A DNA stretch of 63,512 nt, the filler included. It is 15 parts of 15 records of this genome, joined end to end, with 100 filler letters (N's around TTAATTAATTAA, not from the genome) between each part and the next. Parts side by side here need not be neighbours in the genome. Positions count along the whole stretch, not along the records: positions 34,149 to 38,184 come from SRR7504441_19669; 14 more parts are not named here. The stretch is one strand, 5' to 3'. Position 1 is the stretch's first letter; each line of letters opens with the position of its first letter. The notes beneath the pieces are model-generated. The model did no database searches. It was not told the origin of the DNA and saw only the letters and a list, made by a program, of their open reading frames with translations. Shown one piece after another: positions 3,216 to 60,779 of this stretch. Made by a program: the position numbers and the translations under genes.

Positions 3216-3315
3216 NNNNNNNNNNNNNNNNNNNNNNNNNNNNNNNNNNNNNNNNNNNNTTAATTAATTAANNNNNNNNNNNNNNNNNNNNNNNNNNNNN
3301 NNNNNNNNNNNNNNN
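3216..3315. other. Artificial contig linker, first of 14. Others: 10073-10172, 13536-13635, 17597-17696, 23334-23433, 30576-30675, 34049-34148, 38185-38284, 41505-41604, 44800-44899, 47907-48006, 51990-52089, 55416-55515, 59930-60029
   Basis: Identical 100-nt N-run/TTAATTAATTAA/N-run with stops in all six frames; genes are cut at these points. Confidence 0.98.
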
Positions 3316-9940: not shown

Positions 9941-10172
9941 CGTACTCGGCTGGCTCTCAACGTTGCTTGATCAAGCTTCCGTTGACGGCAACGGCAAATT
10001 AATGAAAAAGGGCATGGCACTGAGGCAGCCGCCAGTGTGACGCTTAGTTAGTTAGTTAGTTACCGAGCATTTNNNNNNNNNNNNNNNNNNNNNNNNNNNN
10101 NNNNNNNNNNNNNNNNTTAATTAATTAANNNNNNNNNNNNNNNNNNNNNNNNNNNNNNNNNNNNNNNNNNNN

Positions 10173-13270: not shown

Positions 13271-13635
13271 AAGTGCGGATTCATAATCATATCGCTCTAA
13301 GTGGTGCAATAAACCTATCCTGACAGGTTTCTACCTAGCGATGTTTATAAAGAGTTATACTCGTATAATTATACATTGAACATATATCACCACTAAAGCG
13401 ATATTTACACACTCTTAGACACAACAAGTAGAGGGCAATGCCTATATCTGGGCTTATCTCGTGAACTCAAGCCTGAAGCCGCTGCTTCACTTCAGCCAGC
13501 ATCTCCTTTTTGACCCGCAGCTCCCGCTTCAGGTCNNNNNNNNNNNNNNNNNNNNNNNNNNNNNNNNNNNNNNNNNNNNTTAATTAATTAANNNNNNNNN
13601 NNNNNNNNNNNNNNNNNNNNNNNNNNNNNNNNNNN

Positions 13636-17281: not shown

Positions 17282-17696
17282 ATTTTTAAGCTAATAATCT
17301 GCACTCTAAATAGTTATTTTAACTCCTAGGATTACGACCATAAGGCCATTTTTCAATTGCAACTGTGTACGCATACGTAAAATCACAGTACAATCATATA
17401 CCGTACAATCATATTACATGACTAAGTACTAGTTACCCTAGATTCATGACGAGCATGATTGTAACAAAGCGTCTACATGACTTGTATTCAGTTAAATCTC
17501 TTAGCTCAATGTACGACATTAGTTGATGCGAGAATTATCAAGAGAAACGTGTGCACTCATGTTGTATCGAATCTGGTTCTGAGTCGAAATTCTGGTNNNN
17601 NNNNNNNNNNNNNNNNNNNNNNNNNNNNNNNNNNNNNNNNTTAATTAATTAANNNNNNNNNNNNNNNNNNNNNNNNNNNNNNNNNNNNNNNNNNNN

Positions 17697-19924: not shown

Positions 19925-22062
19925 ATGGCATCCGCCTCACCCTCCTGCGTTGCTCACAGGATGGCGCTGGACGATCAGGCGCTCGACGATCTGTGGGGCG
20001 CCGCGTTCGACGACCAAGAGGCCGATCCGGCCAGCCAGCCTGCGCACAGCTCGCCCGCCCTCCGCTCCCCGCTCCAACACGGGATCAACTCTCTACGCAA
20101 GCAGGTGGCGGACGGCGCGGCCGAGCCCTGGGTGCAAGAGGTGGCTACCGTACGCACCCCGGACCTGCGCACCCCGCTCCGCTCGGGGATCAACCGAATC
20201 CGGTCCAAGATCAGTGACCAGAGCCCGTTCCAGCCTGTAGCGCTCAGCGAAACTGGCGAGCTGCAGAGGCAGAACACCGAACTTTGCTCTAAGCTGGAGC
20301 AGGCCAACGCGTGCATGGCCGAGGCGGCCCGACGGTTTGATGAGGAGTCCCAGCAGGCGCAAGCAACCACCGGCGAGCTGCAAGAGCAGAATATCGAGAT
20401 GGCCGCAAGGCTTCAAGCCGAGCAGCAGAGCGCCCTGGCGGCTCGCGAGGCGATGGAGCTGAAGCTCAGAGCCGAGCAGCAGAGCGCGGTGGCGGCCCGC
20501 GAAGCGATGGAGCTGAAGCTGCACGCTGAGCAGCAGAGCGCGGTGGCGGCTCGCGAAGCGATGGAGCTTGCTCTAAGCGAGAAGTCTGGTCTGGCGGCTA
20601 GGCTGGGCCAATTAGAGACCGAGCTTGCTGAGCTGGAGACCGAGCTGATGCGGAACAGGGAGAGCGACTGCCAGGCCCAATCCGGACTGGAACAGCGTAA
20701 CGCGGAGCTGGAGGCGCGGATGGGAGAGATGGCCTCTGTGGCCGAGCATACTGCTGTGTACGTCCAGGCGCTCCAGAAGGAACTCGAGAACAAAAAAGCC
20801 GAGTTTTTGGGCCAAGTTGCCGAGCTGGTCCAGAAGCGGGAGCAGGACAGCCAGCAGCTCAAGCTGATGAGCCAGGCGCAGGACCAGCTCCAGCTCAAGA
20901 ACTCAGAGTTGGCTCAGCAGCTCGCTTCAACGCTAGCCGTCCTCGAGAGCGGACCAAGCAGCGCCGAGCTGACCGAGCAGCTCCGTGCGGCCGAGGCGCA
21001 GACCGCCGAGCTGGAGCGGAGCCGGCAGCAGGCGTTGGAGGACGCGCGGGTGCTTCAGCAGTCCAACGGGCAGCTCCGAAGGACCAACGCTTCGCTCGAA
21101 GCTGAGGTTCAGATGCACTGCCTGGCGCCGTCGCTTAAGAACGAGTAAGCCGGCCAGGGCTGGTCGGGGGCTAAAGTGAGGGCAGGCACGGACTGGAGCT
21201 GGACGTTGAAAGCTTCCTTGATCAGGCAGAGAGCGGATTCGGGGCTTGGTGCGCTATTAGCTGGTCGGGTAGTGACACGGGCGGGACAGCTACAGCCAGA
21301 TGCTGCTGGCGAATGGGTTTGAGAGCGTTCGGCTGCTGGTGCACGCAGACAGGGAGGATCTCAAGCAATGTGGAGTCAAGGTGACCCACGGCTAGGCGTG
21401 GCTTGAAACGGTGCTCAGATCGGGCATGCGGCGGTCATCATGGATCACATCCAAGCAGCAATCTCAGCTGACAGCCAGCCCAAGCCTGTCACCGCACAGG
21501 CCATCCGCAGCATCGAAGTCACGCTCGGCTGGATCAGCCTGAGCACTCGACTCGAGCGGCGCGAGAGCCGAAGAGTGCTTTCTCGACAGTTTCGGGTGAT
21601 GCAAGCTAGCTCAGCCGCGGCTCCGACCCGCAAGCCGGCCCACGCGAGCAGGAAGCCGCCGGCACCGGTGCAACCATCGCTCTGTCCGCTTTTCTGAGCC
21701 TCTGGTCAGGTCAAACCGGCGAGTACCAGCCACCGAGCACGTGTGGCTAAGGAGAGCACGGCTCCCTCCGCGACTGCTAGGTCAAAGCTCGAGTACCAGT
21801 CTCCGGACAACTACTATGATAAAGCGATGCATCGAATGGACCGAAGAGTTCCAGTGAGCAAAGCAACACAAGGAAAGCAGGTCAGCCCTATTTGCTCCAC
21901 AGGTTGGGCTCACTGCTTGTGATGGTTCAGGCGTTGCAAGAGCGTAATCGTAACGCTGCGCTAAAGCCAGGTGGCAAGCGGAGCAATAGCGTCGGACCAA
22001 GGCGACCAGAAGTGGCTGTCCGGCCACGAACTGCTAGTGCTGTCGCTAGGGCGCGAAAGTAG
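19925..22062 (+). CDS. Coiled-coil protein with SAM domain, ~5 introns
   Basis: Long E/Q/L/A heptad region, then spliced YSQMLLANGFESVRLLVHADREDLKQCGVK|IGHAAVIMDHI. Confidence 0.75.
20417..20569 (+). repeat. 54-nt coding tandem repeat, about 3 copies (AEQQSAVAAREAMELKLx)
   Basis: Near-identical units start at 20417, 20471 and 20525. Confidence 0.9.
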
Positions 22063-23168: not shown

Positions 23169-23433
23169 TAGCAAGTAGACTTCAAAACAGAGGTTGATTC
23201 TGCCGCGCGCAGCGCGGCTTTTAGAAAACTTTCTAAAAACTTTCGGGGCTCATCACAGTCGGTGGTCTTAATGTAAAAATATTAGTACAAGTATAATAAG
23301 TATAATAGCTCGTTGTTTCTAGAAAAGCATAGCNNNNNNNNNNNNNNNNNNNNNNNNNNNNNNNNNNNNNNNNNNNNTTAATTAATTAANNNNNNNNNNN
23401 NNNNNNNNNNNNNNNNNNNNNNNNNNNNNNNNN

Positions 23434-26400
23434 CTCGTCCTTTTGGAACACATCCGGCACGCCGTCGCCGTCTTTGTCGACAAGGATGTCAGGCACCCCG
23501 TCGCCGTTCTTGTCGTGTCCCATAACAAGATAGTCAACCACGCCGTCGCCGTCAAAGTCGATTGGTACAGCTGCATTCTTGAGCATATTTGAGACGCGCA
23601 AAGAATCGCATTCGGCCCGTTTCCGGATGTTTAATTTTCCTTTTGGAGAGAGCATCCCATCGTTGTTGTCCAAAAATGCAGTCGTGTCCATTGAAGCAGG
23701 ATACATGTGAACGACTGTCGTGTTTTTGCCCACAAACTGGGGTAAGTTGATGGGCCGTTCGACACATTCGAACTCTACATGGGAACCATCAGGCAACACA
23801 CCTGATTCTTGATAATACACACAGCCATCTTCCGCTCGAGCTAGTCTGTTATATTTGATGTCTCGCTGCTTATAAATGCCGCCAGTGTCGCCGGCGAGCT
23901 CTGCGGTGAGCTCGAGGTTGAAATAACTGCCATTCATCTCATTTGGCTTCATGCCATACATCCCTGCAAACACTCGATTGCAATAGGCAATCTTGTTTTG
24001 TCCGGTGCGACAATAGACGGGGAAAGGCATTGAGTATACGATGTCACGGACGCCCTCCCTCTCGTTCTTACTTTCGACCTCAGACTGCAATTTGACGGCG
24101 TCACTGGGGCGGATTCCAGAATAAAGCACTTCAGAGGTCACCTCGTGATCCAATGCCCACTTGTCTGCCAGAAGGATGCCATCCTTGTTGTGGATCTTCG
24201 TCATTCTGTGGCAGAGCACCTCGTAAAGTGACTCCACCACAGATGCTTCGTTCTTGTCCACATCGAGCTGATCTTGCCAAAATAGAGCAAACATGTCCAG
24301 CAGAATACCCACAAAGATGTTGATCATCAGTAGCGCTTGCATAAAGTTGTAAACCAGGAAGTAAAGCCTCACCCACTTCGAGCCAGTGCACTCTGCGTAG
24401 CCATTTACGGTCACATGCCAGTTGTTCTGTATCATGAGCATGAAGAGCGTGACGTAAGCTGCCCACATATTGTCGAAACTAAGATTGTAATAATATTGTG
24501 CCTGACCAAATATTGTACTCGACCAAGGCTCGGTTGACCAGTCGCCAGGCCCGCCGTCCTCGGTCACTTCAGAGACGCAGCCGGCCAAAAATGTCATTCC
24601 AATGATCGCAAACACATAATATGAGATGAAGAACAGCACGAGCTGGGGTATTATCGCCGGGATCACACGCGTCGTAGCGTTGAACATAATTCTGAACGTC
24701 TTGATATGCATAATCACTCTGACCAATCTCATCACGCGAAGAGCGCTCACCCCCGACGTCAAGTCCACTGACCCACCAGCAAGGCACAAGTTAACAAAAT
24801 CAATCCACATCATTGAAACCACTGCGATATCCAGCCAGTTGTAGTAGAAACCGGACTGATTCGCTTGCTTGGACCAAAAGTAAATCCATGGTTCATTGGT
24901 TGTTGCTTGACCAAGAGCCGAAACTACAACATCAGTTGAGAAGTAAACTGTGAACATCATAGCTACTGCATGCTCCGTATCACCGCATTGCTGGTTTAAT
25001 ATGTCAGATTGGTACTTCTTGTCTGGGAAAACAAATAAAGCCAGTCCGATGTTTGCAATGATTAACATATTAGTCACGAACTTGTACCTGATATGTGTGA
25101 GAATGAACGTGAGATACTTATTCAGCCCGAGGGGAGGCACGTTCAATGTGATTGGGCACGGGAATTGGCCTGAGGACACTCGGAACTTTTCAGAGACACA
25201 TTGATCATAGATTGGTTCCTCGGCAGGCTCGCTTTCTTCGAGTTCTACATCTCCCACAGATGCCCCTTGCGGCACCATTTCAACCTCAGACTTGCTCTCC
25301 AGGACATCAGCGATGGGATTCCTCTCTTTGATGGTGGCATCGTCATCCGCCTGAGGTACATCTCTATTTCGCTTTTGGGACCAGAATGCACATAAGTCAT
25401 AGACCGAGCCTTCCAGCAAGATATGCATCATGCCAAACAAGGGCTCCGGCCGACATAGTTTGTCCTGTGAGCGCCCAGATCAACGCGCCATCAGCTGTTT
25501 GGATACCTTGGGGTGGATTGGGGCCAGCGCAATGTGATGCAACTGCGCAAATGAGGATTCAGAGTTACGATGCCAGGAACTACAGGCGTACCTTCTCATA
25601 CTCTTCGAGGCTGATACACCCATCATTGTTCACATCCATCAAGCAGTACCACAGCTCCCCTTTGTCGTCGGCATCACGGACCAGCCCGCCTAAAGAGCCT
25701 TCCATGAGCGTAAAATACTGTGTCATAATCTGCACAGATGTGATGAACACTGCCTTTGAGATGCCCTTCTCCTTCTCCAAGGCGCCAAACTGGTCTTCGA
25801 ATTCCATGTCAAGAGCATCACCAGATTGCACGCCCTTGAGCACTGTGCTATCAATGTGCCCGTGCATCAGTATGAAGAAAGAAGTCCGGAGCAGTGCCTC
25901 CGACTTCATGTTCGAGGCTACGATGTACCCTTGGACTAAGTTGCCATACTCTGCAGTTACCACAGCCAGAAACACGTTGAGCAGGAAAACATTCAGAACC
26001 AGCATGAACGAGATCAAGATCACCATCGCGTACCAGTGTGCGTTGTAATTGTACATCCACACCTGCTGCCACTCAGCCCATCCGGCTGGGCACTCACATC
26101 CGGATGATTTGCGGTGGTCATCGCAACGTACATGTTGAATAGTGCATCACCGGTTGAATTGAAATAGGTCTCAATTTGCCGCAGTTCGTACGGGTCCACT
26201 GGGCCCGGACCCGTGTCGTTGATCACCGGCAGCGCCGCCTGCGGCACCACTCAGCTAGGCTACATTGGGGCTGTGCACCTCGAATAGAAAGTAGTGCAAT
26301 AGGAAGAAGACAGCCATTAGTCCGAGAATGCTCCCGAGCTTGCGGGCCAGGTAGAAGGCCGAGATCACGGCGTACCGCATGCTGTGCGAGAAGTAGAGTA

Positions 26401-30575: not shown

Positions 30576-30675
30576 NNNNNNNNNNNNNNNNNNNNNNNNN
30601 NNNNNNNNNNNNNNNNNNNTTAATTAATTAANNNNNNNNNNNNNNNNNNNNNNNNNNNNNNNNNNNNNNNNNNNN

Positions 30676-34048: not shown

Positions 34049-34148
34049 NNNNNNNNNNNNNNNNNNNNNNNNNNNNNNNNNNNNNNNNNNNNTTAATTAA
34101 TTAANNNNNNNNNNNNNNNNNNNNNNNNNNNNNNNNNNNNNNNNNNNN

Positions 34149-35641: not shown

Positions 35642-37435
35642 ATGAAGCGACTCTTGGGCGTGTCGGTGCTCCTCCTCGGGATGGGGGCAGCGGCGGTGGT
35701 CAGCATGAAAGACCTAGCCAGGGCCAGGACCACAATCCCCCGGCCGGCTTTCAAGGGCGACGGCCAGCTCGGGCTTTCGGTTGTGCTCAACCGGCACCTT
35801 GCCGCCCGCGAGCCGCGGACCACCCCGTGCGACCAGTGGGACCACCACCAGCTCCAGCGCTTCATGTCCGAGATCGCCCCGTTCCGCTCGCCCGAGCTCC
35901 AGGCCGTCTACGGTCCGGCTGCCGACCGACGGGCTCTGGCGCTCGGTTCGATCCAAGAGTTTGAACGGCACTGGGCAGAGATGAACGCGATCGCACAGAG
36001 CCACCCAGACCTGGCCCAGCCGCTGCGCGACACCCACTGCCGGGAGGCCGTGCTCTGGTGGACCCACCACCTGTCGGAGAGCACCCGGGAGCTGCTCCGG
36101 AGCACCCACAACGTCCCGCGGCTCCCCGAGACCGACCAGCCCGGGTGCAACAGCAGCCAGGCGGCCGGCGGACCGGACCGGGCCCGGCTATGCGCCGGGC
36201 TGGAGCAGCCTAACAGCTGCGACTGGTGCCATTCAACTCAGGCGAGCCACGACGCCGGAAAGCCCGGGACTAGCCCTCCAAACGCTCTGAATTATACCAA
36301 CGGACCTGATGACGGGAACCCACACGGTTGGGACCGGCAGCGGCGGTGCGACCAGGACCAGATGCCCCGGTGTCAGCTGTGCGAGGGGGTGGGCGGGATG
36401 GCCTGGGGCGACAAGAATGACCAAATCGCGCTGGTGCCCTGTGAAGTGGTAGCCACGCCAGACAAGGTGGACAACGCAACAGTGCACTGGCCGCTGTACC
36501 CCAAGGCTTTCACTGCCAGTCCGGTCAACGGACGGCCCGGGTACTCGGATACGCTCATCGGCTGGAAAACCGACCCGTTCTGCTTCTCTTTCTTCCCTCA
36601 GAACGATTCGATCCCGCCGCTGTGCTATCGATCGCAGGTGAGATCCGAGCACATTACGCAACTTATCTAGCCTCGTGCAGGATAGCACAGGCAAGTGGTA
36701 TGACTCTAGTCGCGAGGCCACCAGGTCCGACTACAACGTCAAGCTCACCGGGCTGTTCTCGCACTTCCCGAATATCAGCAGCAAGATCATGCAGGTCGGG
36801 TGGCAGATGTGGATCCGGAATCACCTCTGGACAGTCGATCAATGCGTGTGCGCCAATCCATCGGGTGCATGGCGCGATGAGGATGCGCTGACTCGGCGGG
36901 CCAGGCCAGCACTGCACCAAGCCGCCGTGCTACTCATATGTGAGTGTGAGAGCATACCGCGGCTACTCACCGCTGGATGCTGCAGATCTGGCACTGGGAC
37001 ACGTTCAGGTCGGCACAGTACTTGGGCCGAGAGCGGATAGGAGTCGAATGGATCCAGGGCGCCGGCACAGGGAACAACAGCAAGATGTGGACTCTGGACC
37101 ACTTCATCATGTGGTCTCACCATGCCTGGACCGACCCTGAGACAGGCCGGATCGTCCGGATGTGGAAGAGCTTCAATGGACTTCAGAATTACGACCCAGA
37201 AGCATGGACTGACACGGTTGTCGACCCAGATACTGTGTTTGCCAGTCCACCAGCCGAGTGCAAGAAGGGCGGCGCGAGGATAAGGATCCATTGCGATGAT
37301 GATGGCAACTATGATGGCAAGACTGTCGAAGGTGCTGAGCATATTGACTTTTTGGCCCAGACCGCACGCAAACTTGGTGGGCGGCCCACACTCGATGAGA
37401 TCCGAGCACATTACGCGACTTATCTAGCCTCGTGA
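35642..37435 (+). CDS. Secreted Cys/His-rich protein of unknown function; C-terminal half tentatively ependymin/LolA-like; introns 36638-36680, 36865-36904, 36940-36985
   Basis: Signal peptide; RDTHCREAVLWWTHHL; splicing gives CYRSQ|DSTGKWYD...NPSG|QHCTKPPCYSY|IWHWDTF...HYATYLAS*. Confidence 0.8.
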
Positions 37436-37693
37436 ATTGTGCACTTCACAGGCGCTTAGCTTTATGGTCTACATGATCGTAAAATTATTGTACATTAATG
37501 TACAATCACTACATGCAGGTGCCTGCCCTCAAGGCCATCGTAGTCCTTATGACTACGTATTACTACAATAATACTACAAGGTTCATTGAATAAATTGCGG
37601 GTATTGTTTGGTTAGATCTCATGTTAAGAATCGGCACACACGCGAGTATAAATATCCATGGATGGTCTAGTAATGGTCTGGATCAATCCAGCT

Positions 37694-38184: not shown

Positions 38185-38471
38185 NNNNNNNNNNNNNNNN
38201 NNNNNNNNNNNNNNNNNNNNNNNNNNNNTTAATTAATTAANNNNNNNNNNNNNNNNNNNNNNNNNNNNNNNNNNNNNNNNNNNNAGCAAATACTGGGGAG
38301 TAACTGGGGAGGAGACCGCCGCGCAACCGACAAGGTCCTCACCATCCCCGCGTGGTTGGCGGCCGTGGCGCGAACCTGCGGTGTCGAACACTGCTTCCAC
38401 ACCGTCACCAGCGCAGCCGTGAGCTAGGCTTCTCCGGCGTCATGCTCCGCAGGCAGGGCTGGACCGGGTGG

Positions 38472-39251: not shown

Positions 39252-40833
39252 TCAACAGGCCGGCCCACATGCGTGGTGCTTGCAGCACTCGAGGTCATCC
39301 AGGAACATTTGCGCTTCCCTGTATATTAGCTCCGCCTGTTTGATCTTCTCCGGAGCCAAGCCGATGCGACCAGCAATTGCATTTGCAACAATGGCAAAGC
39401 GCTGCCTGAACTTAAATATGAAGCAGAAGACAACGCCCTCGTGCCGCACCTGCACGGCACCACACAGCAGATGTCAGTCATCTGGAAATCGAGCACGGGC
39501 AATCGATCACCTGTGGCCCACAGAGGAACAGCCCTGGCGTGATGGTGGACTCGTCCACCGGAGTCAGCATCGGATCGCTCGTGCCACAGGGCCCGCCGGG
39601 CTTCGTCCACCGAAATAATGACTTTATGATAACCGCCACACTGCCTTGGAACCCATTGGCCAAAATAGGAGGCGTGCTGCAGGTGAGCTCCCACGGTACA
39701 TCCGCCTGCAGTTGGGCAATCTCCTCCAAGGTAGGAGGTGCATCTTTCTTCTTCTCCTTCTTGGCCTTTTTGTCCTTCTTGTTCTTTTTCTCCTTCTTGT
39801 TCTTTTTCTCCTTCTTGGCTTTCTTCTGGCCCTTCTCAGCAACTGCCTCGTCTTGTTCGGAAAACTCATCATGTTCATCGAATTCATCTTGCTCGTCGGG
39901 CTCCGAAACCCCGGCTGCAGCAGCAGCCCCGGCTTGCACGCCAGGCCGACTCTTAGTGCCGTGCGCGGGCCGGGTGTGCACTGTGAACGTCCCGTTCGAG
40001 TCCTGGCTGACTCGATACACGTCACGGTTCCCCGCGAGCCGGATCTTGCCCGGTTTGGACTCGCGGGCCTGACGAAGCCGCTGCCTAGTGTAGGGCGCCA
40101 GTTCTAGGCTCGGATCTGCCAGCCTTTCTGCCCAGCTGGCCCGCCGCCCGATCAGGGTTACTGCTTTGTTATAGGAGAGCAGGTTGACTGTCGCGTCAAC
40201 GCCGCTCTCATACCCGCCAATCACCACAAAATCCTTGCCTGGCACGTCGCCCCATGACTCCACCTCCGAGTTGTGCTGGCAGAGCTCGGCGCCCTCGAAC
40301 GGGCCGTCCGCGGGGTATTGGAATTCCCCGGCAGCCCAGACCACAAACTGGCAGCTGTATACGCCGTCCGAGGTCTCCAGCTCAAACCCGCCGGGGTGCG
40401 GCTCGGAAGCGGCCTTTCTGGACTTGGCGGAGGTCTTGCTCGACTTGGACGGGGAGAGCGGCCGGACCTCGAGCACGGTGACACACAAGGCCACCCGCAT
40501 CTGGCCCTGCTCCACGCAAAACTCTAGGTAGTCGCTATACTCCTGTCCGGACAGGTGCTCCGTATCGAACGGACCGAGCGAGGGCGAAGTGCCGATGACG
40601 CACGAGTTCAGGTCCATCATCCCGTGCGCGTTGTGGTTGAACGACGGCGTGATCAGACGCATCTCAGCCGGCCAGGACACGAAACTCCCTCCGATCCTCT
40701 CGGAGCCCTCCAAGATCAGCACATCCTTGACCCCAAAGTCCTTCAGGGCCTGTGCGGCCCCGATCCCGGACGGACCGGCCCCGACCACGATCACTTGCGC
40801 GTCCCACTGTGCCCCTGAGCTCTTCCGCTTCAT
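39252..40833 (-). CDS. Bacterial-type NAD(P)/FAD oxidoreductase (Pyr_redox_3/COG2072-like) with Cys/His-rich tail; intron 39510-39450
   Basis: VGAGPSG, WPAEMRLITPSF, WAAGEFQYP, VIGGYESGVDA, DESTITPGLFLCGPQ|VRHEGVVFCFIFKFRQRF, MFLDDLECCKHHACGPAC*. Confidence 0.9.
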
Positions 40834-40931
40834 CTGCGACCGACTCCAGGTCTCTACCAGCAGTCGTGCACGAGTCGGGAGTGAGTCCCTCAGTTTTCGT
40901 TGCCAGCTGCAGCTGCGCGCACGTCGGTGGA

Positions 40932-41504
40932 ATGGCGGGGAAGAAGCGTCGTCCAGCGAGCAGGGAGCCGGGGCGGGCGCCGCGGGTGTCCCGTGGTAAG
41001 AAAGCGAGGAAGACGCGAGCGGAGCCGGAGGAGCCGGAGGAGCCGGAGGAGGAGGAGTGCGGGTCAGATTGCGGGTGCGATATTGTGATGGAGACGCAAA
41101 GAACCCCCGCGGAGCTGCTGACGATCACCCACCCTCCCGCATCGAGCAAGGCCCGGCCGGCCACGACCGATGAAATTGCTTTCGTCAAGCGGCCGGCAGA
41201 CCTGCAGAAGATCACCAGTGACAAGGTGCAGCTCGCTGTCTGGCGCCGGGCCGCGGCTCCCGAGTTTGTGTCTGCACTGTCGGCCCCTTCGGTCGGTGCT
41301 GAGGGCCTCCCAGAATTCAAGGGGCTGGTGGAAGCCGAGTGCGCGGGCGAGATGCTGAGGTCTGAGCTCTGCAGCGGCCCTTACCCGCTGCGGTCGAAGA
41401 AGAAGCGGGCGCTCACCGACGACGGGCTGGACGAGCTCATAGACGAGATTGACACGCTAGTGCAAGTATTTGCCGAGATAACCGAGTCCGAGGACGTCTG
41501 GGTG
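40932..41504 (+). CDS. DUF1826-family protein (3' truncated)
   Basis: DLQKITSDKVQLAVWRR...LIDEIDTLVQVFAEITESEDVWV matches the N-terminal DUF1826 pattern; the catalytic-like CPxFHxD part would lie beyond the contig end. Confidence 0.65.
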
Positions 41505-41604
41505 NNNNNNNNNNNNNNNNNNNNNNNNNNNNNNNNNNNNNNNNNNNNTTAATTAATTAANNNNNNNNNNNNNNNNNNNNNNNNNNNNNNNNNNNNNNNN
41601 NNNN

Positions 41605-44598: not shown

Positions 44599-44780
44599 AT
44601 GGGCAACTCGTTCGACAAGCAGCAGACGTGCGGGCGGGGCCGGGCCGGCTGACGGTGCGCCAGCAAGGTGCTCCTCAAGCAGTCCACCACCCGGCTCAAG
44701 ATTCTAGCCAACAAGACCTCAAACCTCTCCAAAGGTGCCCGCCGCGAGATCGCCGGCATGCTCGACCGCAAGCAGGCGCC
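44599..44780 (+). CDS. IST1: IST1-like ESCRT-III protein, N-terminus (truncated)
   Basis: MGNSFDKQQT|KVLLKQSTTRLKILANKTSNLSKGARREIAGML. Confidence 0.7.
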
Positions 44781-45279
44781 CCCCCCCCCCCCCCCCCCCN
44801 NNNNNNNNNNNNNNNNNNNNNNNNNNNNNNNNNNNNNNNNNNNTTAATTAATTAANNNNNNNNNNNNNNNNNNNNNNNNNNNNNNNNNNNNNNNNNNNNC
44901 CGGGACGAGGACGTGGAGCCCGGGCACGCTGACGATCTGCTGTCTGATCCGTCAAAGCCTCGTGAGTCTTCTGGCAATGCCGCATAGGCCACATAGGTGC
45001 CCGCACGGAGCCAGGGGGGGCATCCGAAGACCGAAGTTGCCGAGTGAGAGGTCGATACTTAGTCCAGTGCAAAACGTACGTGTTGGGAGTACGGGAATGA
45101 GAGTACGAGTATCATGGAGTATACGAGTAGAGAGCAAAAGCCTACAGTACGTGTACGGTATTATAGTAACATGATCATAAACGCAGATACTCATATAAAC
45201 GGCCGCAGCGAAGCGCTATAGTTCTAAATAAGTCCGGTTCGTTACTATGCCGTACTCGTACCAAGGGTCAAGCGTTGCA

Positions 45280-47721: not shown

Positions 47722-48163
47722 ACTTAGAACCCAGTTCATTCGGCTACACTAACTACCGTATCTGTTGACCGCGTGACCGTAACACTATTAAATCAATAAT
47801 CATGGTATAATCATGGTTAGTTACATGTACTGCACTGGTACGAGTTAGTCTCGGTATTACGGTATTACAGCAGTATTACGGGCTGGACCAACGTACACTG
47901 AGAATCNNNNNNNNNNNNNNNNNNNNNNNNNNNNNNNNNNNNNNNNNNNNTTAATTAATTAANNNNNNNNNNNNNNNNNNNNNNNNNNNNNNNNNNNNNN
48001 NNNNNNAGTTAGATATAAGGTAGATTTGAAATAAATAAATTTTTAATATATATTTGTAATGTTTAAAAACGAAGCTCCATGGGCTCGTACAGAGGGTACG
48101 ACAGTGCATGATCAGTACTTGTCACAATCACCCAGAGCAAAATGTGCATGATACATTACTGGT

Positions 48164-51132
48164 TCAGTCGCTGGTGTCTGTGGACATGACACTTGGGTCC
48201 AAGTGGCACCCAGTATTGAGCTCGTACCGCGCCTGGGTGGCGCCCATCTTGGGCATCGAGAGCGATTTTAACCCCTTCCCGGCTTGCAGTTTGATCTACC
48301 CAGCCATTTATCAGAGGCACGCACCAGCAGGCCAGTCACCTTTTGCCATGGGTGGCCTTCGACAGCAGCGTTGTCCTCAGCAATGCAGTACCCAAACAGA
48401 GTGAGCTGGTCAGGAGTGATCTGGCATGGATCAGGAAGGATCCGCAGATTGGCACAGCTGCCCGGAGCGTAGGCCCACACATCACTATCCGGGCTGAGCT
48501 TGGCGCCTGGAATCACCACCTGTGGCTCTGTATTGGTCTGCACACGTACTGTGGTAACTTCTTTCTCCCCATTGCACCAAAACTCAAACACGACTGTAGC
48601 CTCCTGCGGGGAAAGATTCTGACAGAACACAAAGAGCCGCTCCTGAGTCACCGACTTGTGGATTGAACGCTTCCGCGCTTTCCCCATCCCGACACTGCCT
48701 ATCTTGTCGTGCTCGAGGTCCAGACTCTTGTCCACTTCCTGGTGCACCCGACCACTCCCGTTCTCCGTCCCAATCGCCCGGCCAAGCGTGAGCACCTGTG
48801 GCGCCGCCGGCTTGCCTGACTTGCCCGGGGTGAAGCTGTTGTTTTTTATTTGCGGCTTGGCCTGCTCCTGCACTACCACCTCTGACAACGTGTTGTTCTT
48901 AAACGTATTTGCCTCAATGACCACACCACCGGAGGTCGAGCCCACAATGCACCCAGCCTGCGCGTTCCGACTGACCCGATTCTCGCGTAGGGTGGGGTTG
49001 GAGTCGCCCCAGATCTCGATTCCAGACTGGTTGCCCATGACATGATTCTTCTCCACCATCGAGCCCGTCAAGGCCGCCTTGTTGCTCATTGATATGCCTG
49101 TGCTCTGGTTATGTGAAACAAGGTTCTCGGTGATATTGATCTGAGCCTGGTCGTGGCACGAGACCCCCATCATCTCGTTCTTCTGGACCTTGTTCTGCAC
49201 AATGTTGGCCGTCGCCTGGTCGCGCACCACTATGCCGGACCCTTTGTTCTTGCACACAGTGTTGGACCGCAGCACAGACGAGGCATTCTCATTCAGGACC
49301 ACCCCGGCCAGCTTGTTCTGCGACACCTGATTGTGCTCGATTGTGCCACTCCCGCCGTCGAGCACCACGATCCCCTCGCATTCGTTGGTCTTGAGCTTGT
49401 TCCTCCGCACCATGGGCGAGGCCGCATCCTGGATGATCACGCCCGGTCCACTGTTTGAGAAAACGTGGTTGTCCTCCAGGTGCACCTGCGCAGCTTATCA
49501 GCACCGGCACACCGGGCCGACCCACCCGGCTTTCGTTGCAGACGGCAAGCCCGGCCTCGGCGTTATGTGAAATATTGTTCCGGACAGCGAGCATGTTGCT
49601 GTGCCCAGACATCACAATCCCATGACCAGAGTTATTCCGGACCACGTTGTCCTCGAATTTGCCGCCACTGTCCCCGCTGGCCAGCATCCCCCCAAGCCGG
49701 TTGTCGTTGCAGTGGTTGCCACGCATCATCGGACGGGCAGTCTGCCCTACCGCCACCCCATAGTGGCTGTTGTGCACGGTGCGGTTGTTTTCAAACGAGC
49801 CAAGCGCATCGTCGCCTATGACGATCCCTGCCAGCCGGTTCTTGTTGAAGGTGTTGTTCTTGACTAAAGGGTCTGCGTCCCGCTTGAGAACAAGCCCGCA
49901 CATCTTATGTCCAGTCACATCGTTATTCACAATCACGTCATGCTTGCCCCCGACCACTAGCACGCCGTTCTGCTGACCGGAGTGAATGTAGTTGTTCCGG
50001 ATCAGGCTCTTGTTCGAATCGGTCATGATAAGCGAACCCTGAATGTTACAATCCTCGATCGACGCTTTGTTGGCGTGCGCGAGCCTCACTGATCCCTCGT
50101 CGTTGTCATTCGGCTGCGTGCGAATGTTCATGTTGGCTAGCCGCCCAATGCACATCTCCACATTGGCGTCTACGAATACCGAGTTCCCCACACCGGCCTC
50201 CCCCACGATCTCCACCTCTTTATCGATCCGGAGTGTGCAAGTGTCATGAGAGTTCTCTCTGTACACCCCGGGTGACACGACTATCCGGGTGCCCGGAGCT
50301 GATTGGTCGACTGCTTCCTGTATGCTCTGGTAGTGCACAAGCTCGCCCGGCCCGGCCATCCCGCCGGCCGGGGCCACAAACACCGTCGATATCTCCCGGC
50401 TTGAAGCTCTGTGCCAGTGAGGTCTCTCGTCGTCCGAAGGCGCCGAGTCGGACGCCTGGCCGTCCGAGGAAGCCGAATCGGGCGCCGGTGGCTGGATCAA
50501 CGGCCATCGCTCCTTGTGCTCGGCCTCCTGCTGGTGCCGCCTTTCGAACTCGCTCTTCCAGTTCACTGGGTCGTTATACCTGCCACAGCGCTCAGAGACG
50601 GGGCGCCACCCGTCGCGCACCAGATCCGCCAGAACTTGACGTTGAGGAAGAGATGCCGCCAGAGTGTCGAAGTCTCCGAGAGCACCTTGTACTCCCGGCA
50701 AACCCGGCAGACGCTGGCCAGCTGTTTGGCGCCGAACTGTACCAGGACCAGTCGGACCATGATGTCCCGCGGGATCCACGCCAGCGAGGCCCGGCCATCC
50801 TCGGCGGGCACGCACTCGACCCGCCTCGCGTCCCGGCAGGCTTTGGCTAGCAGCGACTGCGGCGTGTACTGGGTGTTGTTGAGGAGCTTGGGGAGGGGCG
50901 GGGCGGGCGGGACGGCGGGGGGCGGGGCCGACTCCGACTCAACCGCTTCCGAGTTGGGCGGGCGGATGCCCATGCCCATATGCGGGCCGGTAGCCCCGGG
51001 CAGGTACGAGCCGTTGTGCATCGCTATCGACCAATCGGCGCTGAAGGGGGTGGCTGCGGGGCTGCCGGGCCGGCGGACCATCTCGGCCCCGTCGTGCCCG
51101 CCCACGTCGCGGATCATCGACCCCGACTTCAT
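48164..51132 (-). CDS. F-box protein with right-handed beta-helix (PbH1/CASH) repeats, FBXO11-like architecture; ~3 introns
   Basis: F-box IPRDIMVRLV...LASVCRVCREY...LWRHL; YQSIQEAVD...PGVYRE; many N-N-x-G-I repeats. Confidence 0.85.
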
Positions 51133-52130
51133 CGGCCGGTGTGCACGGCCTGTGTAGACATGTGCCGGTGGCAAAGACAGCGCGTATGCCGCCCCATCCT
51201 GGGGGGGAGCCTCTCACGGAGCTGCGTGACACAGCACTGCTTTGCGTTCAGGCTTGGCTCTTCAAGAGCCGTTGATTCGTTCGTGGCAGACGCGTGGCAG
51301 CTGCTGCTGCAGTGATCGCAGTGATTCGTGACCTCTCTGCAACCGAGACACTGGGCGACCTGCGCGCTCTGCAGGGCGGCTGCGCGCTTGTCGGACACCT
51401 CCACGATATGGTGTTAATTATGGCTTATTATGCTGGCCCGGAAGCGCGGGTGATAAAGCCGATTTATTTAAGACCACGGAGCGCGCCGACGTCTTGGTGC
51501 AGTTCTCGGGTGCACCAAGTTGGAAGACTTCGATGTCACTGCGCTCCGCCTACCCGCAACCGGCGGAGCGGTCAGCAGACCTATCGGTCTTATCAAGTTG
51601 AACACGCCTGAGCTCTGCGAGACCTCAAGCCGTTGATTCGGGCCACTGCAAGTGCTGGACGCCAGGGTGCCACGCGGCACGGTAGCGGGGCTGGGTGATG
51701 GCGACGGTGCGCGCACGGCAGCCCGGCTCGAGGAGCCAGCGGGGTGGGGCGCAGGCCGGGCCGGATGAGCTCCCCGGCGAGCTGCGCGTGTGGTCGGACC
51801 CGACGGCGTTCTGGGGCTGGGGCCAGACCGCCGCCCCGCGTCCCCTCACCCAAGGCCGGCTCGAGGTGGTCGCCCTGCCGCCGGGGCCCAGGCAGCCGGA
51901 CAGATATCCAACTTTGCGCTCCGGCTGGTCCCTAGTGACGACAGCCCGCCGCTGATGGTGCGTCGAGCCCCAGGGGGGGGGGGGGGGGGNNNNNNNNNNN
52001 NNNNNNNNNNNNNNNNNNNNNNNNNNNNNNNNNTTAATTAATTAANNNNNNNNNNNNNNNNNNNNNNNNNNNNNNNNNNNNNNNNNNNNCGAGTGCGAGC
52101 TCCGGCTCCAGACCGACGAAGAAGACCGGC

Positions 52131-55192: not shown

Positions 55193-55515
55193 CGACACGG
55201 GGTTATTCCAACATAGTCTACAACCACGCTGATTCATGATGATTATATAATTACAATGCACCGTGTGCATGATGAGAACTACAACTATATTGACCCCGGC
55301 CCGCCAACGGCGCCGAGCCCGGCCAAGGCTCCCCCCTCTAGTATAACCCTCTAGGGCGTCCAGGGCTGTGGGGGTGGCCGCTCGTGGGGTCGTTCCCGGG
55401 GATAGTCGCCGCTCGNNNNNNNNNNNNNNNNNNNNNNNNNNNNNNNNNNNNNNNNNNNNTTAATTAATTAANNNNNNNNNNNNNNNNNNNNNNNNNNNNN
55501 NNNNNNNNNNNNNNN

Positions 55516-58500
55516 GCTTGCAGCACGGGCGAGTGGAGCCGGTGAGTCAGCACGTCATGCACACTGGTCACGTCTCGCCACATGGTGAGCTTGTGCTGCC
55601 ACTGGAGCTCAGCGCCGGGGCTTGTGCAGGCCAGGATCTCTTCCATCGACATCCGCGGAGTTGCGAGCCATTCTTCATGCGTCGAGGGGATCCGGAGCTC
55701 GGAGGGGGTCTGCAGCAGGCAAGCCAGTCGGACCTGGCCCTAGGCTCAGGCGCTGGGCGGAGCCCAAGGGCCGACCTGGGACGGAGTCACGCTGAACCGA
55801 CCGTCGGCCAGGCACGCGAAACGCGGGAACAACCGGGCAGTCAAGAAGCAGCGCTCACCGACCTCTGGCCAGATCCGTTCCGGGGAGATCTCGGCGAGGC
55901 TGAGGAACTGGTCGAGGGGTAGGCCATACACCGTCTCGGAAGCTCGGTCGCCCAGTTTGTAACAGACGACCACTGAATGGCCATCGCAGAGCCGAACCTG
56001 CTGGAGCACACCCGAAGGCGGCACCACCACGCTGGTTTGGGTGCTATCAGACGGAAGCGGCGGATCTGGCGCAATATCCGGGAGCAGATCAACGATGGAA
56101 ACCGGATCGGAGTGAAGGTTGTTGCAGATATCGAGCGAGGAGCACAGGCAGCCGGAATGGACCACCAGCGTCACACCTGCGGGCACAAAGCAGTGGTCCA
56201 CCACAGCGCCGCACCCGAGCTGCAGCCACATACTCAGAGCAACAAGCAACGCAGCGCACCTGAGGCACTTCCGCCAGAATGCTGTTGGTGGGCTGGCAGA
56301 CCTCATCCTGAGGGCACAGGCTGCGCACGTACTCTTGGGGCGACTGCAGGTTTGAGTAGGTGCCGTCAGGAGTGACAGCGTGGAGCAGGTTTGGCCCCAA
56401 CCGCGAGAGAGCTTGGCGCAGCTTTGCCCGAACGCTGTCGGGGGCCAGCTCAAGCGACTGAGCTTTGAGCGTGAGCACTTGGACCAGATCGAGCCACAGC
56501 CTGAAGTTGATCGGGACCACGCCGCTGTCCACCCCAAAATAGGTGCACGCGTCCAGCCCGTTCTCGTCCGCATGAAAATCGACCAGCGCGGCCGAAAATA
56601 TTGGGTCCATGAACGCGATCCCGCTCACAGTCGGCAGCCGGGCGCCAGGCTCAAACCCTCCAGCAGCATACAGCTCGTCCAGGGCTAAGCCATACAGCAG
56701 GTCCTGGACGGCCGAGTCACGATTCACTACGAGCACCCCATGTTGAACAGCATACTCGGGATTGCACGGGATTGCCAGAGCGGTAACACCCTTGTGCGTC
56801 CAGCTCCCGGGCTGACACAGCGCCGTCATGTCATGCACCACTGTGTGGGACTCTGAGCTGCACACCCACACGCCACACGGGGCCGCCCGGGCCAGCTCGG
56901 CCATCTGGTTGAGCAGCACGTCCATGTTGGACACTGGCAGCCCAGCCACTGCCGACACCGCGTGCGATGGAGCGGTGGCAAAGGCCCGACCGTGCCAGCT
57001 GTACGGAGTGCTCTTGTTCCGCATGTTCTGAGTAGGCCCTAGGTGAATGATCAGCACGTGCGCGCGCTGCAGAAGCTCAGTGTCGATGAACCGCTGGCCA
57101 TTCGCCGCCGACAGCCGCTCGGTAATTACCACAAGAGCATTCACAGTGGCTCCGCCCGAGCCGACTCTGGCACCGCCAGGGTCTGGCACCGGCACCACGA
57201 TTGTCTGCTTAGGCACGGCTGTCCTCATCTGCAGCTCATCGCAATAGGTCTGGGCACGAGCTAAGTCGTGCTCAGCGCACGTCACCTGCCGCCATGCTGA
57301 GCCGCGCTTCACTGCCAGCCTACCGCGATCGCAGTCCACGGTGCTGGCAAGCTCGGTTCTGGCTCCGGGGCTGAGATGGCCTCGGCGAGATGGGTTCTCC
57401 AGCAAGCCTGAGCCTCCAGATCGGCAGCGGCGACGGTCTGTTTGAGCGACAGTCGGGAGCCCTGCAACGGGCTCACTGGCTGGGTGGGCGGGCAGGGAGC
57501 CTGGGCCGTGTGCTGCCACAATGCGAGCGAGGAGCGCTGCCCAAGCACGAGCCTCATGATCACCACAGCCGCCGAGGTGCTCCCCTCGCGGGTGGGCATC
57601 ACCGGCCAGAGCTCAGCTGTCCACAGCGAGCGGCCCGCCCCGGGTTGGCCAGGCCAGACGGCCTCAGGCTTCAGCTCCAGCCGGCTGAGCGCTGTAGCTA
57701 CTGGCACCCCGAGCAGCGTGCCATGCTCGAGCTCGGCCTGCCCAATCCTCAGACCGGCCCGGCGGCGGACCGACCTTGGTGTTGTCGGTGGTGCGCATGA
57801 TGTGGGTGACGAATCCGGTCTGGCCGGCCTGACTAACTGGGAGGGTCTGCATGAAGCAGTTATCAGGCAGCTCGACAGGACCGTCAATCTGAGCGTCGGT
57901 CAATAGGCACCCGCTCCCGAGTTTGGCTCCTCCTTTAAGCCAGCAGTGCTCCAGCACGCACCCGGGTGGCACCGCAGCCCCGTCCACTACAGAGTTGATC
58001 ACACAGCTGCCCTCGGCGCCCTGCACGGAGCTCTTGAAATGCCTGAGCCTGGGTGGCGCCAGCTCTCCCAGCTCGCTCGCCAGGTGCTCAACGTACTCGC
58101 GCATAGTCCCGATGTGCACAAAGCTGCCCGGCTCGAGCACGGCGCAGTTGAGCTGTAGATCAGCCAGCCCTGCGGCCAGCCTGGCCCTGACTTGCCACAG
58201 CTCCTCCGGCCCGTCTGCCTTTATGTATTCGTCGGTAGCCTGCCGGCCGAGCGGATGCAGGAAGTCGCCGTACGCATCCACCTCGTGCCGGAGCACTCGC
58301 TCCCGGTCGGCTCGGAACAGCCCGAGCAACCTGACCGCTGTGCTCCTGTCAAACATGAAGTCGCTATCCGTGAGCACTTGCTCCTCCCCCGGGCCAGCCA
58401 GCACCGCCCCGGCCGCACGCATCAGCGCCAGCGGCGGTTTCTCCAGGTATCGCGCCGCGGTGCAGGTGCACGGTGGCCGCAGTTCGCCGGGCTCCAGAAC

Positions 58501-59351
58501 GAACACACCTGTTGTGGCCAACCTCACACTGCGGCAGCCGCTGGCGCACCATGACGCTCGCCAAGCTCGGCCGGGTTGCGCTGAGCAAAGGTGGTGAAGC
58601 CGGGCCGGGCGAGATCGAGCCCCGCGGGGTTGAAGCAGACCAAATCGTCGGCACAGGAGAGGAGCCAGCTGCCAGGGGGGACAGCCGCAGCCACTGAGGC
58701 GTAAGTGACCAGCTTGGCTTCGAGCATCGAGAGGAGCTGCCCGCCGGCCAGCTGGACCGGCAGCGGCGCAAGGATCTGCCCCCCCCCCGGTCAGCTGAGC
58801 CGGGCCCGACAGGCACCTTGCCGCCGGCCGAGTGGTTTGGCAGCCGCTGCGACCAGCCTCCGGCGTGCACCACCAGCACTCGGAACCGATCCATCTCCTC
58901 CGGGCTGTACAGCTCGGACAGCCTGCCCCGCGCTGGCAACCGGCCAGTGCCTGGCCCACCGCTCCAGTGCGAGCAAGGTCGCCCCGCCCGAGCCGATCCG
59001 AGGGCCGGGCGGGTCCGGGAGCACGTGCAGCCGGACCGAACTCGGGATGTGCCCGTCGGCTCGGCGGGCTCGGAACACCCGGCGGTAATGATCGGCCTGG
59101 GCCTGGTCGGAGGCGGTGACCACCAGCGCGTCCCAGAAGGTGAGCGGCCGCCCGATGTTGGCGGACCGGATCGCCCGGTGGTAGAGCCGCAGGTTGGCCT
59201 GGTGCGCCTGGCGGAGCAGCGCCGGACGGGCCGGCGGGCTGACGGCTGTCTCGGCAGCTCGGACGCCCCGAGCAGCCCCCGGTCTGCTCCGCTCGAGTGC
59301 ATCGAGCCGGGCGTTGAGCGCGCAAAGCACGGCGCCGGCACGATCTCCCAT
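55516..59351 (-). CDS. Fusion of fucose-1-phosphate guanylyltransferase (FPGT-type) and animal-type L-fucokinase (3' truncated, at least 6 introns)
   Basis: Domain 1: FWDALVVTASD...DPPGPRIGSGGAT...HAGGWSQRLP...DAYGDFL...SLWTAELWPV. Domain 2: WTAIA|VTC...DPGGARVGSGGATVNALVVITERLSA...LDACTYFGVDSG. Confidence 0.85.
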
Positions 59352-59498
59352 GCTGGGAAACAGTCGAAGGCGGCAACGGAACGAGCTCGAGGCTGCAGAA
59401 GGGGCCACCCGCACCGCCAGCTGGCGCGGATGCGTCGTTGGACTTCGTAGTTGAAGTCTCACGGGCAGTTTCGCGCGCCCAGCTGCAGTCTCACCGGG

Positions 59499-59826: not shown

Positions 59827-60779
59827 AGTCTGCCGGTGTCAGCGGCGAATGAGCTGGGCGAAGGGTTGCAAGGCATGTCGGATGCGGTTAACCACATGGC
59901 AAGGTCCCTGACCGTTTCGATTTTTCGATNNNNNNNNNNNNNNNNNNNNNNNNNNNNNNNNNNNNNNNNNNNNTTAATTAATTAANNNNNNNNNNNNNNN
60001 NNNNNNNNNNNNNNNNNNNNNNNNNNNNNGAGCGCACCAAGAAGCAAGAAGATGGCTACTCCGACCCAGAAGATGGCCAGCAAGGCAGAATGCTCACTTT
60101 TGGCTGAATTTCGTTCAAGACTTTAGACAGATAGCTTTAGTAGATAGACTTGGCCGCGCGTTCTAGCTAGATAGCATAGCTATAGGCAGCGGCCGGTCGC
60201 TATAGACACCGGACAGGTGTACGATCGTATAAAATATAGATTTCTTCGTATGAGTCCAGTAAATACAGATTTATCTCGAGCCGCATCCACCTACTGCCTC
60301 CAGCCAAGCAGACCTTTTTAATCGATCACATATAGCGATTTCTGAGTATTATTGGAATAACCACCCGACCAACACTCTGCCCAAGCCTTAGGCCGAACCA
60401 CCCACCACACCGGCCGCAGCAGCCACGTCCATGGTCGGACCAGTACTGCTGCGAGCCCACGCCCCCCCATCCATCGGCCCCGCGGCCTCGAGAGACACGC
60501 ACCCCGCGCGCAAGCCATCCCGGCCCGGTGCTGCCCTCCCCAAGGCCCCGGCTCGCCCCCGCGTCGACCGCCCGGCGGCCAAATGTGTCCCGCCCCGTCG
60601 CGTGCCACCTGTTCGCACCCGCTCCAGCCCAAGCCTCGCCCGTGCGCCACCGGGACCACGGCGCACCGTCACCTGCGTCCCGCCGACTGCCGGCATGATT
60701 ACCACCGGCCACCGTGTCGAGAGACACGCACCCCGCCGTCTGACAGCTATATCCGGTCCAGCCGATCTGCACGGTGTGT

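Follow-up and report, generated by a model that had tools for sequence, protein, structure and literature searches.

The window analysed here is a stretch of 63,512 bases, filler included, in which 15 separate parts of about 3-7 kilobases (kb) from an uncultured marine protist stand end to end. One of these parts, the contig at 34149-38184, carries a four-exon gene for a conserved, probably secreted protein, and within the coding sequence of this gene lies a 43-nucleotide (nt) segment with the form of a GT-AG intron. The body of this segment matches the last codons of the same gene at 38 of 39 positions. We conclude that the segment is probably a real, recently gained and spliced intron, formed from intragenic filler at a CAG|G site. 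The evidence comes from the repeat pair itself, from the reading frame, from the direction of copying and from the fit of the candidate to the introns native to this genome.

The candidate intron and its coding source

Direct comparison of the two copies bore out the 38 of 39 match on which the initial annotation had rested its case. They are direct repeats, and the sole mismatch is at 36660, where the upstream copy has A and the downstream copy has G (37417, the third position of the Ala codon GCG). The downstream copy does belong to the last codons of the same coding sequence and ends inside the TGA, as had been claimed; the copied stretch stops on the second base of the stop codon. The distance from source to copy is 757 nt in the same orientation, and two introns and about 700 nt of sequence lie in between. 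A search of the window with the 39-mer, allowing up to three mismatches, found exactly two sites, and 100 dinucleotide shuffles of the window gave no match, so that chance alone would be expected to produce none. Self-BLAST of the window returned four repeat pairs, the other three of which were local tandem repeats, situated near 20.4 kb and 39.7 kb (20410-20568 and 39746-39827; the units are some 36-54 nt long and 85-90% identical, in open reading frame (ORF)-bearing sequence rich in guanine and cytosine (GC)). The 39-mer pair is the only dispersed repeat within the window, which at this scale answers the concern that the 39-mer might be a repeat found at many unrelated loci. Across the 40 related loci described below, no copy of the 39-mer rose above the level of shuffled sequence.

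The gene model was fixed with homologous proteins. A search with the last exon retrieved 60 proteins, the best 77% identical, and ten full sequences were used to set the exon boundaries; those with names derive from transcriptomes of protists, a dinoflagellate (63% identity) among them. Introns 2 and 3, which the initial annotation did not mention, are needed because the final frame is otherwise out of reach. Once introns of 43, 40 and 46 nt are removed (Table 1), the model encodes 554 amino acids with no internal stops, and this protein can be aligned nearly end to end with homologues of 540-570 amino acids. Apart from the candidate segment, the exons are free of frameshifts and stops. A Pfam search with three pieces of the protein found no family above the noise at E = 0.1, and a protein atlas search gave no usable match for the product.

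The coordinates, the GT and AG ends and the in-frame TAG given for the 43-nt segment in the initial annotation were all verified. Reading through the segment in the exon frame adds 10 codons and then reaches the TAG, and a retained segment would shift the frame and remove 222 conserved residues. Its excision yields the stop-free protein, in keeping with the frame-keeping role proposed earlier. A metagenome locus search found 40 related loci, 39 of them transcript-like, a form that carries no information on introns, and one genomic (L040). The spliced protein can be aligned with the 39 over almost its full length. The 36637|36681 junction is gap-free in 38 of the 39 transcript-like relatives; the exception is L039, a distant member with a 2-residue deletion. 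Five of the 39 have a 2-residue insertion eight residues beyond the junction.

The direction of copying was read from the C-terminus, where the window protein was aligned with those 47 of the 60 homologues that have the anchor motif. The downstream 39-mer encodes a tail of the form T-L-(D/E)-x-(I/L)-(K/R)-A-(Q/H)-Y, with a few hydrophobic residues after it. This pattern is common to the closest group of homologues (P0001-P0007, P0009 and P0011), which are 60-77% identical to the window protein. The initial annotation had pointed to the C-terminus of orthologues as the guide to direction, and the tail is conserved throughout this group. A tail kept in proteins at 60-77% identity is far older than a 38 of 39 nt match, and the coding copy is therefore ancestral. 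On these alignments the coding end is the source and the candidate intron body is the copy. An RNA contig (record 11 of run X3) spans 37295-37445 with no difference listed at 37417, which weakly suggests that G is ancestral at this position and that the A arose within the intron copy.

Fit to native introns and the duplicated target

Native introns were mapped in the clathrin heavy-chain gene of the window (3976-9703, minus strand) by walking the protein P0076 along the DNA; ab initio joining of ORFs was too noisy in this GC-rich sequence. P0076, the best match, is a full-length transcript-derived protein at 99% identity, the next matches, metatranscriptome proteins like P0076, reach 95 and 93%, and named proteins reach at most 55-60%. 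The clathrin gene has one exon of 917 codons and ten introns of 44, 153, 41, 42, 44, 42, 176, 61, 46 and 45 nt, seven of them within 41-46 nt; all are GT-AG, and nine of the ten start with GTG. These ten introns together with introns 2 and 3 of the candidate gene made up the control set (n = 12).

Every control intron is GT-AG, as is the candidate. Lengths of 40-46 nt were found in 9 of the 12 controls (the others measure 61, 153 and 176 nt), and the candidate measures 43 nt. The preceding exon ends in AG in 9 of the 12 controls, and the candidate is preceded by CAG; its own acceptor ends in CAG, with G following. In 7 of the 12 controls a CTNAY motif occurs whose A lies 12-19 nt before the 3′ end (12-16 nt in 6 of them). 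The candidate has CTTAT with the A 15 nt from its 3′ end, under a criterion that is loose, 5 of the 12 controls having no such motif. Judged by its letters, the candidate is in every measurable respect an ordinary member of the native short-intron class. Such a match would be surprising for an insertion that arose at random and without selection.

The initial annotation also drew on a GCAGG duplicated at the flanks of the insert. The repeat is present on both sides and supplies the donor G and the acceptor, but it is weaker evidence than was claimed. In-register repeats at the junctions of the 12 controls measure 1, 4, 2, 3, 3, 5, 7, 3, 3, 1, 2 and 0 nt. Taken alone, a flank repeat says little because the splice consensus itself creates such repeats, a caution also voiced in passages on Drosophila introns and in part of a review (PMC3296678, PMC3443670). 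The GCAGG repeat gains weight because the 43 nt are the sum of 39 nt of identified source and 4 nt that repeat the target (5 counting the ambiguous G). This sum of 39 and 4-5 nt matches the residue expected of staggered-break fill-in around captured filler.

Under such a mechanism, a staggered double-strand break at a CAG|G site in the coding exon would have been closed by fill-in repair that captured or copied a 39-nt filler from the gene's last codons, with DNA in cis or the gene's RNA as template. A target duplication of 4-5 nt (GCAGG) would have been left around the insert. The donor GTGAGA would have been formed, by sequence accident, from the G of the target and the first bases of the insert, and the duplicated target would have served as the acceptor CAG followed by G. 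The CTTAT inside the insert could act as a branch-like motif, 15 nt from the 3′ end, and the total of 43 nt would fall within the 40-46-nt class normally removed by the host spliceosome. Splicing would then take out exactly the added bases and leave the protein unchanged. A blunt insertion of the 39-mer would have had no acceptor just before the downstream codons, and only the duplicated form would be expected to survive selection.

For the proposal of a very recent gain by repair of a staggered break, frame restoration, native fit, copy direction and the CAG|G site all argue in favour, while the mechanism and the term "newborn" reach beyond them. Splicing in the window's strain, recency and staggered-break fill-in repair are the parts of our reading that we infer. 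The term "newborn" is not established: one difference in 39 nt makes the gain recent and undated, and is compatible with an age close to that of the split from a relative of about 97% identity (see below). We consider it possible, a little short of probable, that the intron is near its birth and that genomes with short introns gain introns from break-repair filler, including pieces of the host gene itself, with no transposon involved. There, nearly every filler some 39 nt long that starts with TGAG and enters a CAG|G could become an instant intron.

Independent contigs and rival explanations

The locus was compared with runs X1 and X2 (DNA), X3 (RNA) and X4 (polyA RNA) from marine metagenomes and metatranscriptomes. 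No run matches half the locus, and partial matches were found only in marine metagenomes and metatranscriptomes. RNA contigs with 0-1 differences cover 36059-36209, 36727-36865 and 37104-37296, which are parts of exons 1, 2 and 4. This suggests that transcripts of the gene are made by the window's strain or one almost identical to it, with presence in an RNA library not being proof of transcription by itself. DNA contigs from X1 and X2 match at 99-100%, introns 2 and 3 included, and intron 2 was found at 100% identity in record 2 of X2. An RNA contig with one difference (record 7 of X3) continues for 12 letters after 36865 and then ends, a pattern that splicing of intron 2 would give; it was not used.

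One polyA RNA contig lies across the candidate site. Record 12 of X4 (234 nt, depth 3.44) aligns to 36507-36638 and 36686-36782 with four substituted letters between, for a net loss of exactly 43 nt; its shorter side is 97 nt long, and the two codons after the junction are changed synonymously. About 8 of 233 positions disagree with the window, and the contig thus represents the relative of about 97% identity. Joints at 36815-36910 (side 23) and 36631-37100 (369 letters between) came from divergent homologues or were unclear, and neither was used. A protein search with the junction region, for fragments that read into the insert or skip it, gave a best match of 81% identity and no near-identical match.

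Contigs of X1 and X2 alike stop at 36690, and X2 has a further break at 36630, beside third codon positions; these breaks perhaps reflect population variants. Record 2 of X2 (477 nt) contains an opposite-strand joint of 36690 to 36439 at the shared 8-nt word AAGTGGTA (36444-36451 and 36693-36700). This inverted joint is probably an amplification chimera.

Several observations weigh against a spliced, recently gained intron. The junction is crossed by no RNA contig of at least 99% identity, and splicing is unobserved in the window's strain. Record 12 of X4 may have been transcribed from a gene in which the insert was never present, or it may be spliced RNA. The DNA runs X1 and X2 leave 36631-36689 uncovered, and the insert is without independent DNA support, in a fragmentary short-read assembly that is a chain of contigs with artificial spacers. 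The count of two 39-mer copies applies to the 63.5 kb of the window. Flank repeats of at least 5 nt occur at 2 of the 12 established introns. No microhomology longer than 1 nt was found between the target ends and the source flanks, and there is no pathway signature; the only possible microhomology is 1 nt at the right junction, and a shared TCGAT word, found in a check for polymerase-theta-type templated insertion, is 6 nt out of register. Finally, some 10 nt downstream of the site the genomic relative L040 carries an intron, and the region is not intron-free in all relatives.

The 43 nt could be a templated insertion that is not spliced, in which case the gene was lately put out of action by a frameshift, or a single-cell or metagenome assembly has captured an allele that is deleterious or private. 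Such an insertion would fit the lack of observed splicing in the window's strain and the fragmentary assembly, and one difference in 39 nt would make it too young for a dead gene to have collected further damage. It would have to owe to chance its GTGAG start, its codon-exact acceptor, the distance of its branch-like motif and its native length; moreover, RNA-library contigs with 0-1 differences lie on both sides of the insert, library presence alone not amounting to transcription. We regard this explanation as unlikely. An artefact of assembly or amplification, through a chimeric read, a template switch in whole-genome amplification or a false path in the assembly graph, appears distinctly unlikely. 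It would need two precise switches back to one place together with a 4-5-nt duplication, the shared words are all too short for an assembler to be misled by them, and the one-base difference from the source speaks against plain copy-paste. Such an error would also not be expected to yield a consensus intron of native size. What speaks for an artefact is that the contigs are short and joined by spacers, some with long poly-C or poly-G ends, that independent DNA contigs leave the insert uncovered, and that the inverted chimeric joint of X2 lies 10 nt from the insert at its 8-nt shared word.

A short mobile element resembling an introner would account for a short target duplication at a splice-like site, with the 3′ end of the gene merely its second copy, and introners are described in parts of two sources as a major origin of new introns in many protists (PMC12130899, PMC3443670). 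The two copies in 63.5 kb, the lack of any copy above shuffle level in the 40 related loci and the absence of terminal inverted repeats (the insert ends are not complementary) make this highly improbable; the second copy, moreover, is conserved coding sequence whose tail is common to distant homologues. We give equally little credence to an old intron whose body gene conversion replaced with sequence from the gene's 3′ end, or to copying from the intron into the coding end. Conservation of the C-terminal tail excludes this opposite direction. An old intron draws its support from the intron of L040 within about 10 nt of the site. L040 (1666-3719 of a 9.1-kb contig) is the only genomic relative; it is distant, intron-rich and lower in GC, with at least five introns across the stretch that is intron-free in the window's gene, and its contig ends about 100 nt past the site, inside an intron. 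Its nearby intron is at a different position, however, and L040 reads through the homologous codons with no intron at the exact phase-0 site, within uncertain boundaries. A 39-nt conversion tract that stops exactly at the intron borders is also unlikely.

The wider window consists of contigs joined by 14 identical artificial spacers (N44-TTAATTAATTAA-N44). As a concatenated draft assembly, it gives no meaning to gene neighbourhood across the spacers. Long poly-C and poly-G runs end two contigs just before spacers, at about 44779-44799 and 51974-51989, and look like artefacts of sequencing chemistry or amplification. Two adjacent long ORFs on the minus strand, 56092-57612 and 57667-59490, both match the fucose pyrophosphorylase domain, at profile positions 3-261 and 110-366, respectively; they may be one gene with a short intron or tandem paralogues. 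Intron-free long ORFs, all on the minus strand, lie at 23389-25479, 39481-41124 and 49292-50938, with ion-transport, flavin-type pyridine-nucleotide oxidoreductase and right-handed beta-helix (NosD-like) domains, respectively. The genome looks gene-dense and intron-poor.

Table 1. Features of the candidate gene and spacers of the window (positions count along the 63,512-base window).
Feature	Position	Strand	Description
Exon 1	35642-36637	+	332 codons, ATG start, hydrophobic N-terminus; uninterrupted alignment to P0001, P0009, P0006
Left GCAGG (target site)	36634-36638	+	last G is the first base of the candidate intron
Candidate new intron	36638-36680	+	43 nt, GTGAGA...GTGCAG, phase 0, in-frame TAG at 36668-36670, CTTAT
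Derived 39-mer copy (candidate intron body)	36639-36677	+	38/39 match to 37396-37434
Right GCAGG	36677-36681	+	provides the acceptor CAG and base 1 of exon 2; the 39-mer may equally end on its first G
Exon 2	36681-36864	+	184 nt; homologue alignment and spliced model
Intron 2	36865-36904	+	40 nt, GT-AG, established control; restores the conserved NPSG-QHCT stretch as in homologues
Exon 3	36905-36939	+	35 nt; homologue alignment and spliced model
Intron 3	36940-36985	+	46 nt, GT-AG, established control
Exon 4	36986-37435	+	450 nt including TGA stop at 37433-37435; 77% identity to P0001
Source 39-mer copy	37396-37434	+	final 13 codons, starting at base 3 of an Asp codon, plus first two stop bases
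Spacers 1-7	3216-3315, 10073-10172, 13536-13635, 17597-17696, 23334-23433, 30576-30675, 34049-34148		
Spacers 8-14	38185-38284, 41505-41604, 44800-44899, 47907-48006, 51990-52089, 55416-55515, 59930-60029		

Comparison with known intron gains

The origin of new spliceosomal introns is a long-standing open question. In the gene described here, at 38 of 39 identity, one can still read the source, the CAG|G target and the duplicated target bases. If splicing and presence or absence of the insert were confirmed, the locus would be a clean natural example of break repair with filler, in a lineage far from Daphnia and fungi. If the reading is true, exonic DNA with no prior role in splicing could be used at once as an intron by a host that recognises very short introns. 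Should the insert be polymorphic in marine populations, the rate and the fitness cost of intron birth would become measurable from metagenomes. A literature search, which was not exhaustive, found no case of an intron copied non-tandemly from the end of the coding sequence in which it lies.

Even recent introns rarely betray where they came from, according to the sections of two studies that treat them (PMC4202315, PMC3443670), and the background statement of the initial annotation, that such sources are very rarely found, agrees with these sections. In the same sections, intron gains in Daphnia are documented by population data, and short direct repeats flank some of the new introns. Like the Daphnia neointrons of a 2009 study, as summarised in passages of PMC4202315 and PMC3443670, the candidate is a short insertion in a coding exon with a short direct repeat at its flanks, as would fit the filling-in of a staggered break. 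The likeness extends, in those summaries, to premature stops within the insert, a requirement for splicing and a size near that of native introns. Unlike the Daphnia cases, for which that part of PMC4202315 describes sources as difficult to find even when they are internal, the source is identified here, in the coding sequence of the gene itself and 757 nt away. The Daphnia neointrons were shown in those accounts to be spliced and polymorphic in populations, whereas the candidate is known from sequence comparison.

Introns with organellar filler offer a second comparison. One gained Daphnia intron resembles mitochondrial 16S rDNA, as stated in a passage of PMC3443670 with reference to Curtis and Archibald 2010, and Drosophila has been searched for introns with organellar filler, as reported in part of PMC3296678. 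Like those described in PMC3443670, in the passage concerned, the candidate has a body of captured pre-existing DNA with an identifiable donor. The organellar donors in that account are weakly similar, whereas the donor here is nuclear, intragenic, coding and identical at 38 of 39 positions.

The candidate also shares features with introners of protists and fungi, in which a target-site duplication gives a splice site and the size is near that of native introns. It differs from them in having two copies in the window and none in the 40 related loci, in lacking terminal inverted repeats and in having conserved coding sequence as its other copy. A further likeness is to gain by tandem duplication of an AGGT-containing segment, as outlined in parts of PMC4974935 and PMC3443670, where the gene's own exonic sequence is likewise used and AG|G splice sites are likewise duplicated. 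Unlike a tandem duplication, the candidate is separated from its source by 757 nt and two introns, and the local duplication amounts to only 4-5 nt.

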